Positions 20,743-25,605 of a DNA stretch of 42,211 nucleotides are shown piece by piece. Numbering within the stretch: the first letter of the stretch is position 1; each line of letters starts with the position of its first letter. The stretch comes from Chlamydiales bacterium (GTDB taxonomy: Bacteria > Chlamydiota > Chlamydiia > Chlamydiales > JBFIDQ01): positions 1 to 42,211 of the forward strand of contig JBFIDQ010000001.1 of NCBI GenBank assembly GCA_041603795.1, given 5' to 3'. A program made the position numbers and the translations under genes. The notes under the pieces were generated by a model. That model saw only the letters and a program-made list of their open reading frames with translations, was not told the DNA's origin and ran no database searches.

Positions 20743-21155
20743 GTATTTTTTTTGATGACAATTCTGGATCTCCGTCAGATACTACTGACGGAATTCCAGT
20801 AAAGCTAAAAGACTCATTAGCCAATGAAAGAAATCCCGGGACGGCAAACGAGTATGGTGTGTCTGTTCCTGAGTGGAACTATACTGTAATAGATCACGCA
20901 GACACATCGCCTGTAGCAGTATCTGGCGGCGTTCCGGCAATAATAGGTAATGTTTACTGCTCTGAAGCAATGGCCGGAAGCCCTGATTTTGCATTCTACG
21001 ATGATTCTACAGAGGTTTATCCGATGCCGGTATCTATGACTTTATCTTCGGAAAAGCTGTCCCTTGCCGGTACAATTTTTGCCACTGACCTTAACTGCGT
21101 CATAGCGTCTGCTGGAACTGCGGGGAAGATAGTTGTTCAATGGCGAGTTAAGTAA
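20739..21155 (+). CDS. hypothetical protein
   Basis: The ATG at 20739 forms an ATGA overlap with the upstream stop. The track start is TTG at 20712. Confidence 0.6.
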   Translation: MSIFFDDNSGSPSDTTDGIPVKLKDSLANERNPGTANEYGVSVPEWNYTVIDHADTSPVAVSGGVPAIIGNVYCSEAMAGSPDFAFYDDSTEVYPMPVSMTLSSEKLSLAGTIFATDLNCVIASAGTAGKIVVQWRVK

Positions 21156-22603
21156 TGACGACAAGATATTCTGTAAATAAACAAAGGAATTCAAGTTATC
21201 TTGACATTGAATCGGCCTTTACAAATGCTGCGTTTTTAGGCGGCGGTAGATTTAATAGCTCGTTATTAACTTTGGATGGCGTTGGGGCAGATAGCACAAC
21301 CACGGGTACGTGGGTAAGCCTGGGTGTGTCGGAAGATCATTCAGGACTGCTGACCGAAGGGTCTTTAATGATGTGGCTAAACAGTGACTATGTAGCTGGA
21401 GGTCTCGATTCCAGCGGATCTGTGATTGCGGCAGTAAATGCCGCTTCGCTCCCGGCTTCAATAATGAATAGAGACGGCTCTGATGCAAATAGAGGAACTA
21501 TAGTTGTAGACCCGAATGGGTATATTGACAGCCAATTAGTTATACCTTCAACTGATGATGAATATTTGCATTATAATTTAAATATTGCTTGGCGAGGCAA
21601 GGGTTCGTGGATTCCAATAATTCATCAATGGAGTTCTTCGGGTAGATTCCAGACAATTGTTGATGGCCTTGTTGTTGCGGATTCGCAAATAGGAACCTAC
21701 GATTTTCATTCGTTGGACATGAATCCTTACGACGTAAGAGACCCTAACGCTTCCACTGATTCGGACGCGTTAAGAAATGTTGCTTTGCTTGATTCTTTTC
21801 AGGATATTGGATCACCGAAAATAAGAATTGGTTTTATAGGTGATTCGTTAATGAACTTTGGCGGATTCCCAGACTGGATGTGGAGCAGCAGAACAACTCA
21901 ACGCCCTGACTGGATACCTATTGAAAATTCTTTCGCTACTGCTGGCCCAAAAGGAATAGACGGCTCAAATGGTGCGGCAGCCGAGTCAGTAAACGGAAAG
22001 CATTATGATGCCGGTGCATTAACTACAATTATAAGAATGGCTCACAAATCAGGATACTTGTCTTCTAAAAACCTGAACTTCACACAGGGTGGAGCAACGA
22101 CAGCACAAATAAAGACAAATCTTAACAACCTATTGTCTATTGGTGTGCCAAATGTTGTTTTTTGCAATGCCGGACAGAACGATGCAAATGACGGTGCTAG
22201 CTTTGACGCATCAGCAAAAACAACCTTCGAATCAAATTTAAAGAGCATGGTATCTACAGCATACAATTCAAAAGTAAATCAGTTTATAACAAGCACGCTG
22301 CACTCAATGCAGAACAACACAACTTATTCAGATCAAGTGTACGCCGACAACGTTGATTACTGCAATGCGGTTATAAACAGTCTACCTCGCTGGTCTAAAA
22401 GACAAGGGTATGGCGATAAGTTTTTAAGGGTTGCTGACAATTTTACAGCTTTCGGCGGGCATTCGTTCGACTCTAATTTGTTCTTAACAAATGATGTTCA
22501 TCATTCAACTGCTGGAAGTTATCTTTTTGGATATGAAATGGGGAAAATGATAAGCGATATAGTCCTTGGTAAAAGGTTTATGGTAGGCGCAAGATCTAGT
22601 TAA
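21155..22603 (+). CDS. two-domain protein with C-terminal SGNH/GDSL hydrolase (putative polysaccharide esterase)
   Basis: Block I is IGFIGDSL. Block III is FCNAGQNDAND. Block V is TNDVHHS. The roughly 220-aa N-terminal region has no recognised motif. Confidence 0.7.
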   Translation: MTTRYSVNKQRNSSYLDIESAFTNAAFLGGGRFNSSLLTLDGVGADSTTTGTWVSLGVSEDHSGLLTEGSLMMWLNSDYVAGGLDSSGSVIAAVNAASLPASIMNRDGSDANRGTIVVDPNGYIDSQLVIPSTDDEYLHYNLNIAWRGKGSWIPIIHQWSSSGRFQTIVDGLVVADSQIGTYDFHSLDMNPYDVRDPNASTDSDALRNVALLDSFQDIGSPKIRIGFIGDSLMNFGGFPDWMWSSRTTQRPDWIPIENSFATAGPKGIDGSNGAAAESVNGKHYDAGALTTIIRMAHKSGYLSSKNLNFTQGGATTAQIKTNLNNLLSIGVPNVVFCNAGQNDANDGASFDASAKTTFESNLKSMVSTAYNSKVNQFITSTLHSMQNNTTYSDQVYADNVDYCNAVINSLPRWSKRQGYGDKFLRVADNFTAFGGHSFDSNLFLTNDVHHSTAGSYLFGYEMGKMISDIVLGKRFMVGARSS

Positions 22604-23223
22604 TGTCTATCCTAATAGGCACTCCAATGTTCGGTGGGCAGTGTACTCGTGATTACTTCGAGTCCTGCCTTAACCTGAAAGAAGATCTGGCAGAAATAGG
22701 GGTAAACCACGATTGGCTAACGGTAGCGAACGAATCCCTGATAACGAGGGGCCGGAACACAATAGCGGATACGTTTCTGAAAACAGATTTCGAGGCGTTA
22801 CTGTTTATCGATGCGGACATTCGGTTTCGCACAGAGGACGTAGCAAAATTATGGAATTTGAATGCCCCAATTGCAGTCGGCGCTTACAGGATGAAGTGCG
22901 AAGAAATCAAGTATAGTGCATGGAGGGATAACAAGATAGTCAATCTGCAGGACATAGAGGGCAAAGAACCCTTAAAGGTTGATTACGCAGCTACAGGCTT
23001 CATGATGATTCAAAGAGATGTCTTTGAGCAGATGAAAGATAAAGTAGAAAAATATGACGAAGAAGGGGAGAGATATGCTTTTTTCCAGGATCCCATTATT
23101 GACGGGATGCACATGTCAGAGGATTACTTCTTCTGTAAAACATGGCGAGACATGGGCGGGGAAATCCTGCTTGATCCGACAATCGAACTTGGGCATATTG
23201 GAACAGTAGAGTATGCCTCTTGA
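22603..23223 (+). CDS. glycosyltransferase (GT-A fold, DxD type)
   Basis: The translation shows GTPMFGGQC..., ESLITRGRN, LLFIDADIRF (DxD) and SEDYFFC. This pattern matches what I remember from a phage and bacterial glycosyltransferase family. It was not searched. Confidence 0.7.
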   Translation: MSILIGTPMFGGQCTRDYFESCLNLKEDLAEIGVNHDWLTVANESLITRGRNTIADTFLKTDFEALLFIDADIRFRTEDVAKLWNLNAPIAVGAYRMKCEEIKYSAWRDNKIVNLQDIEGKEPLKVDYAATGFMMIQRDVFEQMKDKVEKYDEEGERYAFFQDPIIDGMHMSEDYFFCKTWRDMGGEILLDPTIELGHIGTVEYAS

Positions 23224-24360: not shown

Positions 24361-25103
24361 ACGCAATCCATGAAACGGCAGTAATCCATCATACTGCAAT
24401 CTTAGGAAACAACAATACAATAGGCCCGTACTGCTACATAGGGCCGAGAACAATCATAGGGGACGGGAATACATTCACCTCTCACTGCGCAATAGGAACC
24501 AAGGCGCAGCATCGTGGCAAGCACGAAGATGGCTACGTTAAAATAGGCCATAGAAGCGTCTTTAGAGAATTCTCTCAGATAGGAAGATCAACAGAAGGCA
24601 TTCCTACGTTTGTTGGTAATAACTGTTATGTTATGGCTGGCGCCCATATACACCATGATTGTAACGTAGAGAACTTCGTTACCATTTGCAGTAACGCTGT
24701 ATTAAACGGCGCTGTTAGGGTAATGCAAGGAGCTACAGTAGGAAGCTCTGCTTCAGTTCATCAATGTCAGGTTATAGGTAGTTACTGTATGCTCGGAATG
24801 GGTAGTATCGTGACCAAAAAGGGCAAGTTAGTCCCAGGATATATCTACGCAGGTAACCCTGTTAAGAAACAAGGCAGGAATGAGATTGGCTTAAGCAGGG
24901 CTGACATATCCCCTGAAAAGATAAGAATTGAAACGATCAGGTACAAGAGACTAAAAGATGCCTTATCCCCAAAGGGAAGTGGAAACAAACACAGTAGCAT
25001 GCGTGTACTTCGAGAATTCGCAGAACAATGCGGTTCATCCGTTCTCAAGGGAATACAGCGACGAGTACGTTCACAGGTTGAACGACTGGGTAAAACAGAA
25101 TAG
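24357..25103 (+). CDS. LpxA-like hexapeptide-repeat acyltransferase without a canonical start codon
   Basis: The frame is open from 24315. The translation ...NAIHETAVIHHTAILGNNNTIGPYCYIGPRTIIGDGNTF...GAHIHHDCNVENF...GNPVKKQGRNEIGLSR parallels E. coli LpxA (AFVHPTAIVEEGASIG...AHIAHDC...) from memory. The first in-frame ATG/GTG/TTG is at 24633. The 5' coordinate is set at the ATA in the ATAA junction and is provisional. Confidence 0.65.
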   Translation: MNAIHETAVIHHTAILGNNNTIGPYCYIGPRTIIGDGNTFTSHCAIGTKAQHRGKHEDGYVKIGHRSVFREFSQIGRSTEGIPTFVGNNCYVMAGAHIHHDCNVENFVTICSNAVLNGAVRVMQGATVGSSASVHQCQVIGSYCMLGMGSIVTKKGKLVPGYIYAGNPVKKQGRNEIGLSRADISPEKIRIETIRYKRLKDALSPKGSGNKHSSMRVLREFAEQCGSSVLKGIQRRVRSQVERLGKTE

Positions 25104-25605
25104 CAGATGCAGGTTTGTTTGCATAACAGACCATGACATCCCCGGCGTTGAGACATTCAGATTTCAACAGCCAGAAAGAAACTACTGGACATGCCTTGAA
25201 GTATTTGGCCTTGATCTAGGCAACGTTTTGTCAATCGGACTGGATACTATCTTCACAGGCCCGATAGATCACTTCTTCGAGTATCGTGGAAGCCTTGGGA
25301 TGCTGCATGACCCTAACAAGCATGGCGTTAGCATCAATGGAGTTTTAAGGTTCCCTCACAGGCCGGACATCTGGCTTAATTACGTCAGAGACAAGGAACG
25401 TATCAAAAACAGATATAAGAATGAAATGGCTTACATAGCCAGCTATGCACATGACTTCCTCGATGACAAGTATCCGGGGCAGATATTATCCTATAAGAAA
25501 CATGTGCTATTGGGGGTGGAAACTAAAGACGCAAGAATCGTCTACTTCCACGGGAGACCGAAACCTAAGGATGTAGAATGGCAGGCAATACCTCAGAACT
25601 CATAG
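24958..25605 (+). CDS. putative nucleotide-sugar transferase-like protein
   Basis: The 215-aa ORF has the pattern VACVYF...EYSDEYVHRLNDWV...FVCITD...GLDTIF...YFHGRPKP, which recalls a phage glycosyltransferase-like family. This is from memory and weak. It overlaps the acyltransferase ORF by 146 nt. Confidence 0.5.
   Translation: MPYPQREVETNTVACVYFENSQNNAVHPFSREYSDEYVHRLNDWVKQNSRCRFVCITDHDIPGVETFRFQQPERNYWTCLEVFGLDLGNVLSIGLDTIFTGPIDHFFEYRGSLGMLHDPNKHGVSINGVLRFPHRPDIWLNYVRDKERIKNRYKNEMAYIASYAHDFLDDKYPGQILSYKKHVLLGVETKDARIVYFHGRPKPKDVEWQAIPQNS

Follow-up and report, generated by a model that had tools for sequence, protein, structure and literature searches.

Predicted glycan-building enzymes in a variable island between the terminase genes of a phage contig

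The contig JBFIDQ010000001.1 of assembly GCA_041603795.1, deposited under the name Chlamydiales bacterium, is a stretch of 42,211 nucleotides that carries phage genes and is referred to here, over its whole length, as the window. Its sequence is identical to a Logan contig of the sequencing run SRR29257391. Six consecutive open reading frames (ORFs), which we call A to F, occupy positions 21155-25605 on the + strand in front of terL, the gene for the large terminase subunit (25578..27074, +; Pfam Terminase_6N and Terminase_6C). A preliminary description of the same DNA had placed a cluster of six glycan-modification genes here, and all six ORFs are present at those coordinates. A terS-like gene (15024..15512, +; phrog_1595 at 4e-9 and phrog_51 at 1.5e-8) lies 10 kb away from terL, and the two terminase genes form the upstream and downstream boundaries of an island that is conserved as a location throughout the phage lineage and hypervariable in its content. 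As predicted from their sequences, the genes next to terL encode soluble enzymes for building and decorating glycans, together with the packaging genes, and a core of these enzymes has been retained across deep divergence within the lineage.

The six genes in front of terL

Two of the genes, B and F, are predicted to encode glycosyltransferases of the GT-A fold. The preliminary description had made this proposal for B and had named F more broadly as a nucleotide-sugar transferase, and both assignments are supported here. Searches of the Protein Data Bank (PDB) with either single sequence gave nothing, and it was the family profiles alone that gave matches. For B (22603..23223, +; 206 residues) the profile A4, which contains phage and giant-virus relatives, matches the A197 protein of Sulfolobus turreted icosahedral virus (STIV; PDB 2c0n) with an E-value of 4e-7, the match being limited to residues 27-145, and GlfT2 with an E-value of 0.053. 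The DxD motif of B, D70-A-D72, and a SEDY block (S172-Y175) are invariant in 11 sequences, and the protein matches phrog_1574 (1e-38) and phrog_34859, annotated as "glycosyltransferase" (0.0084). No Pfam family, PF00535 included, matches B at E<=0.1. Homologues of B occur in five related phage contigs, in giant-virus contigs from metagenome-assembled genomes (MAGs) and in many cyanophages.

F (24958..25605, +) abuts terL and encodes a putative retaining glycosyltransferase of 215 residues that resembles family GT8. The profile A5 matches the Skp1 alpha-galactosyltransferase 6mw5 (1e-8), glycogenin (3e-5), the GT8 entry 5gvv (1e-3) and LgtC (1.5), and the GT8 match spans approximately 100-130 residues, including the DxD region. 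F also matches phrog_1962, annotated as "glycosyltransferase", at 9.5e-35. The DxD position reads G-L-D in the window and in one relative (L034) and D-L-D in most relatives, with D96 invariant, and an FHG motif (F197, H198, G199) is conserved among the homologues. In Pfam no family reaches E<=0.1 for F, which includes PF01501 (Glyco_transf_8). Homologues in isolated phages include PmgQ of P1 and HdmD of P7.

C (23213..23824, +) encodes a Rossmann-like protein of 203 residues, remotely similar to MptE, DUF115 and GT42 proteins, and is together with F a conserved core gene of the island. The preliminary description had called it a DUF115/MptE-like putative transferase. The fold of the model and weak profile matches agree with this proposal, but C stays below the Pfam thresholds and has no significant fold match in the PDB. 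C itself has no match in Pfam, PHROG or NCBIfam, and none of 35 homologues contains a Pfam domain; its tandem paralogues P0180 and P0237 score 27-31 bits with PF01973, for which the cut-off is 34.6. The AlphaFold2 (AF2) model of C has a predicted local distance difference test score (pLDDT) of 91.9 and is similar to entries of BFVD that are uncharacterised phage proteins (TM 0.75) or viral proteins annotated as "MptE-like" (E 1.7e-5, TM 0.55). A Foldseek search of the PDB with this model gave nothing at E<1e-3, with the sialyltransferase ST8SiaIII reaching a TM of only 0.33-0.41 and the RCK domains of Slo1, at a TM of about 0.2, representing noise. A confident assignment of C to GT42 or Maf through the PDB fold search was rejected, the matches being at the level of noise. 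The profile A2 gives weak matches to the GT42 sialyltransferases CstI and CstII (2p2v, 1ro7), with E-values of 0.005-0.02 over 40 residues. The DUF115 domain of Maf is reported to be similar to CstII of GT42 where the donor is bound (bioRxiv 10.1101/2020.06.03.131540), so the weak signals from CstI/CstII, PF01973 and the MptE-like proteins are mutually consistent. A DUF115 identity of C is plausible on these comparisons, while formal membership of the family fails.

An exhaustive profile search at E<=1e-3 finds 2043 representative clusters of the C family, and one member, P0268, is a fusion of C with a GT2 domain and a TOD1/MUCI70 glycosyltransferase-like domain. A pattern search of 185,579 species genomes found no match to C, and tblastn against isolated phages found none either. 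With proteins of about 200 residues, more than 2000 representative clusters and no annotation, this is probably a new glycosyltransferase family. Three IMG/VR contigs (L038-L040) carry distant C-like genes as tandem duplicates and show no terL match within the 20 kb examined; the C family is therefore not always linked to terL outside this lineage.

D (23812..24360, +) had been labelled as an unknown protein of 175 residues, a label that we replace, as D belongs to a small, divergent sulfotransferase-like family. The family consensus, PRSGSS...NPKGFFEN, contains a P-loop of the sulfotransferase type, and weak matches to Sulfotransfer_3 (PF13469-like) are found in four out of five family members (best E 0.0066), the window protein giving none. 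A search of the PDB with the family profile gave no match. The P-loop of D reads A-R-S-R-S-S in the window and in one relative, L046, and PRSGSS in the other four members, and the C-terminus of D is shorter than in the family. The canonical start codons, GTG at 23830 or ATG at 23836, cut off an in-frame ITAVVLVTM that aligns with the conserved first beta-strand of the family. The position at which the relatives have ATG corresponds approximately to an ATC at 23812, which is a possible start. L046 shares both the RSRSS sequence and this layout with D at 51% identity, which suggests that D is conserved rather than randomly decayed.

E (24357..25103, +) is predicted to encode a truncated, LpxA-like acyl- or acetyltransferase with a left-handed beta-helix. 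It had been described as an LpxA-like hexapeptide acyltransferase of the acyl carrier protein (ACP)-dependent type; the hexapeptide, LpxA-like part of this description holds, but "acyl-ACP-type" is not supported, as E falls below the equivalog cut-offs and its family is without the C-terminal domain of LpxA. The scores with the NCBIfam LpxA equivalogs are 148.4 against a cut-off of 226 and 133.4 against 231, and models of NeuD/PglB-type acetyltransferases give 87 bits. The C-terminal domain PF13720 is matched with just 15.4 bits (E 0.025) over the first 33 of 82 positions, and the closest homologues, which are around 200 residues long, are without it. The possibility that E is a true LpxA was rejected on these two grounds. 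The best PDB match is 8e62, a protein of 189 residues (2.6e-29), followed by LpxAs; a literature look-up of this PDB code returned no relevant paper. The HxxHD motif of E is AHIHHDC, in which H104 is invariant and D105 near-invariant in an alignment that includes full-length LpxA (A1). We take H104 to be the equivalent of H125 in E. coli LpxA. Homologues of E sit in phage glycosyltransferase clusters, in one case next to genes for a DegT aminotransferase and a GFO_IDH_MocA oxidoreductase.

The reading frame of E is open from 24357 and contains no ATG, GTG or TTG before 24633. The methionine with which the homologues begin (MNDIHPTAI) aligns with an ATA at 24357 (ATA-AAC-GCA-ATC-CAT), and what is usually an ATGA stop/start overlap is ATAA at the D/E junction. 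A Shine-Dalgarno (SD)-like GGGAGAG is positioned 6 nt upstream of this ATA. In L045, the nearest relative, where C is 80% identical, an E-like gene with a TTG start directly follows C. The homologous core of E ends near 24960 with no stop codon there, and 47 further codons run into F. Because of its ATA start codon, E may be weakly expressed or recently silenced. The motif TTGGGAGAR precedes both the ATC of D at 23812 and the ATA of E at 24357 (23800-23814 and 24343-24359), and its two copies code for the "(L)LGEP" at the C-terminus of C and of D, respectively, the proteins encoded just before. Two adjacent genes with ATH at the homologous start positions and the same SD-like motif provide a small case of non-canonical initiation, or of silencing that is underway.

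All of the cluster genes are on the same strand as terL and have overlapping junctions. Translational coupling had been proposed for all six. The junctions A/B, with the sequence TAATG, B/C, with an overlap of 11 nt, and F/terL, with an overlap of 28 nt, do look coupled, but D and E are without a suitable canonical start. E and F overlap by 146 nt. A programmed -1 frameshift that would fuse C with D or D with E, both frame changes being -1, was considered and rejected, as a slippery heptamer is lacking and each of the homologues is a gene of its own with its own start. No strong terminator-like site was found on the + strand within 20100-25600. A hydrophobic stretch is missing from all six proteins, in which the Kyte-Doolittle mean over 19 residues stays below 1.5; they are therefore predicted to be soluble and are probably cytoplasmic, and the cluster contains no flippase, polymerase, GtrA/B/C-like, AT3 or any other membrane protein.

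The island in related phages and the esterase module

To place the cluster in its lineage, 14 related viral contigs were retrieved by a search with C and their ORFs were clustered. These relatives are 45-54% identical to the window in terL and 52-58% in the major capsid protein (MCP), with a range of 41-58% for terL, portal and capsid together. C lies upstream of terL in 14 of the 14, a count that is partly by construction because C was the search query, and in 12 of them F is the gene immediately before terL. Five relatives carry B, and four carry D, within or close to the island. In L032 and L034 a terS homologue is found 0.6-1.6 kb upstream of B, and in the window the gap between terS and terL has expanded to 10 kb. 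The interior of the island varies, and includes Radical_SAM, Methyltransf_24, Methyltransf_21, GT2 and GT-D (8.8e-24) genes and a CapD-like dehydratase (Polysacc_synt_2, 1e-93), as well as a weak PIG-L match, another hexapeptide acetyltransferase and fibre-type proteins resembling beta-helix or LamG proteins. The retention of C and F over such divergence suggests that they serve a core function of the phage rather than being a host-specific moron. A megablast search of 50,697 phage records with the cluster gave no match, and no close isolated relative was found. Vibrio phage Phriendly, the best terL match among isolated phages, has its terS and terL genes split as well, by approximately 2.2 kb with an endolysin and hypothetical genes.

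The first gene of the six, A (21155..22603, +; 482 residues), has a different distribution. The protein consists of an N-terminal domain of about residues 1-220 and a C-terminal SGNH/GDSL esterase domain. The esterase had been recognised in the preliminary description and is confirmed by a Pfam score above the cut-off, invariant catalytic blocks and the fold of the model. Residues 225-410 match PF00657 (Lipase_GDSL) with 27.4 bits for a cut-off of 23.6, PF13472 remaining below its cut-off (21 versus 32.9). The blocks GDS (G229-D230-S231), GxND (G340, N342) and DxxH (D447, H450) are invariant in six homologues (alignment A6). The C-terminal domain, in a model of moderate quality, resembles GDSL lipases and hydrolases, TesA, CE3 and acetyl-xylan esterases (E 3e-5 to 3e-3, TMt 0.5-0.63). 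For the N-terminal 220 or so residues the AF2 pLDDT is below 30. A does not resemble the known anchors of tailspikes or fibres, has no match to a structural PHROG, and gave no tblastn match in isolated phages.

Two unrelated phage types carry homologues of A with 65-70% identity, in each case just ahead of terL with a small gene in between. One is a prophage with a P22-type portal in a 5.8-Mb Gammaproteobacteria MAG (L041/L043, OZ244144.1), and the other is a contig of an SU10-like phage (L042) from SRR29257391, the same sample as the window. This recurrence suggests that the host of the window phage is gammaproteobacterial. Behind its structural block the SU10-like contig also encodes Methyltransf_23 and Glyco_transf_8 proteins. 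No copy of A was detected in the islands examined in the 14 relatives, and this result together with the recurrence of the gene in two unrelated phage types indicates that it is part of a separate mobile module. The GC content at third codon positions (GC3) is 0.356 for A and 0.406 for E, and lies at 0.36-0.41 for A, u147 and E, compared with about 0.52 for their neighbours.

The module that appears to travel with A extends upstream through u152, u234, u366, u74, u95, u102 and u147 (17664..21155, +) and includes serine/threonine (S/T)-rich, fibre-like candidates. At its start, u152 is 45% identical to the gene at the equivalent position in the SU10-like phage, and at its end u147 gives a weak match to the gene that precedes A in L041. 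The products of u234 and u366 (18122-19926) contain 26% and 22% serine plus threonine and 3% lysine plus arginine, and a 21-nt tandem repeat at 19529-19610 in u366 encodes (GAVGSVT)n. Among isolated phages u366 has only one match, to a hypothetical protein encoded by Microcystis phage Mvi-Yong1342-1, and neither the upstream fibre-like genes nor the ORFs of the tail region have Pfam or PHROG matches. Both u234 and u366 may be fibre or decoration proteins, and both are candidates for the acceptor of a glycan.

The islands of two relatives (L026, 3729-5608; L029, 4098-5414) hold a 418-residue protein with an N-terminal motif that by eye resembles pectate lyase, and proteins of 206 and 438 residues with a jelly-roll or LamG-like appearance. 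The C-termini of these last two proteins and of u234 have similar glycine-rich motifs (GLGLSFGKMGMH, GLGFKYGVSM, GLGIPIAAYHYNHN).

The cluster had been presented as a single unit. The distribution of its genes in relatives and the presence of A in unrelated phages show instead two evolutionary modules, and on this sequence evidence we divide the six genes into a predicted glycosyltransferase core (B, C, D and F), an accessory decorating gene, E, and the end of a separately mobile esterase module that runs from u152 to A.

In the remainder of the window, small membrane proteins resembling a holin/spanin lysis cassette are encoded at 16104-17621, with 66 residues, 165 residues (multiple transmembrane segments, 16492-16989), 70 residues and 65 residues, followed by a 91-residue lipoprotein at 17346-17621 with the lipobox LFAGC. 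An endolysin-like gene (phrog_315) is distant from this cassette, at 8453-9019. The - strand region 709-3731 encodes a ribonucleotide reductase of 869 residues, which matches the corresponding profiles in several separated stretches and is adjoined by an HNH endonuclease gene (709-1125); this could be an intein or an insertion. Two DNA methyltransferase-like genes and a MazG-like pyrophosphohydrolase are located at 4512-5045 (-), 12313-13035 (-) and 39658-40134 (-). Neither an integrase nor a hydroxymethylase-like gene was found among the window ORFs scanned.

Possible targets of the encoded enzymes

The reading that we favour, tentatively and at somewhat less than an even chance, is that the encoded enzymes act in the cytoplasm at a late stage of infection and glycosylate a protein of the phage itself; for this reading we infer the timing, the donor sugars and the acceptor. 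A to F would be co-transcribed with terL late in infection. The core would consist of the MptE/Maf/GT42-like C, possibly using a CMP-activated ulosonic sugar, the GT8-like retaining enzyme F and often the A197-like B, and lineage-specific decorating enzymes, here D and E, would be exchanged around it. With nucleotide sugars taken from the host, the enzymes would assemble a short O-linked glycan, and decorate it, on a phage protein such as the capsid protein (30010-31131) or a virion surface or fibre protein like u234 or u366, which would be modified before assembly. A would be a separate horizontally mobile gene that arrived with the S/T-rich proteins upstream of it, and its esterase may trim O-acyl groups on the glycan, or on the receptor polysaccharide of the host if the protein is carried by the virion or released.

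Among GT8 enzymes, glycogenin, the Skp1 alpha-galactosyltransferase and GlyE act on proteins or protein-linked glycans. A cytoplasmic protein target is suggested by the persistence of C and F in relatives that probably have different hosts, by the lack of a membrane or export component in the cluster and by the negative outcome of the pattern search for C among bacterial species genomes. The S/T-rich, low-charge products of u234 and u366, encoded just upstream, point in the same direction, as do the characterised relatives of B and C, which act on proteins made in the cytosol: A197 is a candidate for glycosylating the coat protein of STIV (PMC4187194), and Maf/DUF115 proteins, which are structurally related to GT42 (bioRxiv 10.1101/2020.06.03.131540), O-glycosylate serine and threonine residues of flagellin prior to export (PMC4065374).

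Several points weigh against this reading. The system is a prediction from its genes, late expression is predicted from gene position, and the glycan acceptor is a candidate: u234 and u366 are candidate virion proteins, and among the relatives a segment like u366 is found only in L034. The link between C and Maf/GT42 is weak, being below the Pfam threshold and without a significant PDB fold match. D does not have the P-loop glycine of its family, and E may be non-functional given its ATA start and unmatched tail. Other objections concern the kind of glycan that such enzymes usually modify, and these lead to the main rival, which we rate only a little below the favoured reading. Here the enzymes would remodel the host envelope by editing intermediates of the lipid A-core, undecaprenyl-linked O-antigen or capsule at the cytoplasmic face, with the esterase and acyltransferase editing O-acyl groups, and the altered receptor polysaccharide would lead to superinfection exclusion or keep progeny phage off debris. 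GT8 includes enzymes of the lipooligosaccharide and lipopolysaccharide core, and LgtC is a weak match to F. E is most similar to acyltransferases of lipid A and sugars, and the position of one short LpxA-like homologue beside DegT and GFO_IDH_MocA genes is typical of amino-sugar pathways; more generally, pathways for envelope polysaccharides typically include enzymes of the LpxA-like, sulfotransferase-like and SGNH types. The hypervariability of the island is like that of O-antigen and other bacterial surface-polysaccharide loci and fits host-specific targets equally well, and A, being common to unrelated phages that probably share a host, behaves as host-interaction genes do. However, remodelling of the envelope is at odds with a cluster that contains no flippase, polymerase, Gtr-like, AT3 or other membrane protein, with a C/F core kept at around 50% MCP identity where hosts probably differ, and with the failure of the pattern search to find C among the bacterial species genomes. 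The phage also has the appearance of a lytic one, no integrase having been found in the ORFs scanned. Seroconversion of the classical kind therefore does not apply, and this scenario was rejected, as was that of a prophage.

Two further possibilities concern single parts of the cluster and a third a different substrate. A may act independently of B to F as a receptor-modifying O-acetyl esterase, borne by the virion or released at lysis, within a mobile host-recognition module. We regard this as evenly balanced, and it is compatible with the other readings. Its homologues occupy the same position in the P22-type prophage and the SU10-type phage with no adjoining B to F genes, it did not turn up in the islands searched in the 14 relatives, its GC3 deviates and its N-terminal 220 residues form a separate domain, whereas the tight TAATG junction with B suggests co-expression and the protein resembles neither a tailspike or fibre anchor nor a structural PHROG. 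It is doubtful, in our judgement, that D and E are pseudogenes or remnants in partly decayed cargo, leaving only B, C and F (and A) active. The ATA start, the missing stop at the homologous end and the low GC3 of E would fit such decay, as would RSRSS in place of RSGSS, the lack of a canonical start before the first strand and the shorter C-terminus of D. On the other hand the frames of D and E are intact over 176 and 248 codons, the peculiarities of D shared with L046 imply purifying selection, the same SD-like TTGGGAGAR stands before both ATH starts, and the E counterpart in L045 uses TTG, which is another weak start. Glycosylation of modified DNA bases as protection against restriction, as in the T-even phages, would fit a place adjoining the packaging genes, the F homologues of unknown function in P1 and P7, the radical SAM and methyltransferase genes of some relatives and the two DNA methyltransferases and MazG of this phage. 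Yet the ORFs scanned revealed neither a dCMP/dUMP hydroxymethylase nor a thymidylate-synthase-like gene, and the genes of the cluster lie in the packaging and structural block, not with replication genes. To our knowledge esterase, sulfotransferase-like, hexapeptide acyltransferase, GT-D and CapD-like dehydratase genes belong to glycan pathways and not to DNA modification. Because of this repertoire and the undetected hydroxymethylase, we think DNA glycosylation very improbable.

Cytoplasmic glycosylation of a phage protein can be extended to a more specific proposal, which we think quite unlikely in its full form. The island would encode an autonomous system of protein O-glycosylation anchored by the C family, in which the glycan is diversified cassette by cassette, at a hot spot in the terS-terL gap, through sulfation, acylation, methylation and radical-SAM chemistry to give the virion a variable "glyco-serotype", with D and E produced at a low level from AUC and AUA. 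Glycosylation of the virion by phage enzymes is established for only a few systems, and it has consequences for host range, for stability and for recognition by the immune system. Should the enzymes act on the host envelope instead, they would amount to a small set of soluble tools with which a lytic phage edits its receptor.

Comparison with known systems

A close parallel to the favoured reading is found in mycobacteriophages, where glycosyltransferases glycosylate capsid and tail proteins of the virion (e.g. PMC11256854). In these sets too soluble phage glycosyltransferases, sometimes with methyltransferases, are encoded beside structural genes, and the proposed target is the virion. They differ in the phylum of the host and in their enzyme families, while the island described here lies between terS and terL, has an MptE-like and GT8-like core with an esterase and sulfotransferase-like and LpxA-like proteins in addition, and its glycan is a prediction from genes. 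The opposite comparison is with seroconverting phages (GtrABC, Oac/AT3-SGNH), in which phage genes also glycosylate or acetylate surface glycans of the host and an SGNH domain is also involved. Those systems consist of membrane proteins of temperate phages and work in the periplasm, whereas the proteins here are predicted to be soluble, no integrase is present among the ORFs scanned and the genes sit in the packaging and structural block.

For the individual enzymes the likenesses are partial. B shares with STIV A197 the small single-domain GT-A fold with DxD, and the virus of A197 assembles in the cytosol (PMC4187194), but that virus is archaeal, the match covers only part of the protein, and the activity of A197 is itself uncharacterised. 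C resembles the Maf/DUF115 and GT42 proteins in its weak profile match to the donor site of CstI/II, its MptE-like fold matches and the PF01973 scores of its paralogues, and differs from Maf in being a single domain of about 200 residues without the Maf flanking domains. F matches the GT8 enzymes glycogenin, Skp1 alpha-galactosyltransferase, GlyE and LgtC in a profile that takes in the DxD region, yet it is shorter, has GLD for DLD and a phage-specific C-terminus (FHGxPKP), and is not recognised by Pfam Glyco_transf_8. E has the left-handed beta-helix and the HxxHD catalytic-histidine motif of LpxA, which is its best-scoring named family, but its own family of around 200 residues is without PF13720 and is encoded in phage glycosyltransferase clusters and not in lpxD-fabZ-lpxA-lpxB.

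Since glycosyltransferase clusters of phages and giant viruses and the glycosylation of mycobacteriophage virions are already known, the island does not represent a new kind of system. Within the searches made, what appears to be new is the terS-terL address of a glycan island that varies by cassette, its MptE-like and GT8-like core, a C family that is both large and unannotated, the truncated LpxA-like family of phage glycosyltransferase clusters and the paired non-canonical starts. A recurrent address from terS to terL and a core of two genes would allow the variable glycan pathways of phages to be located and compared across metagenomes.

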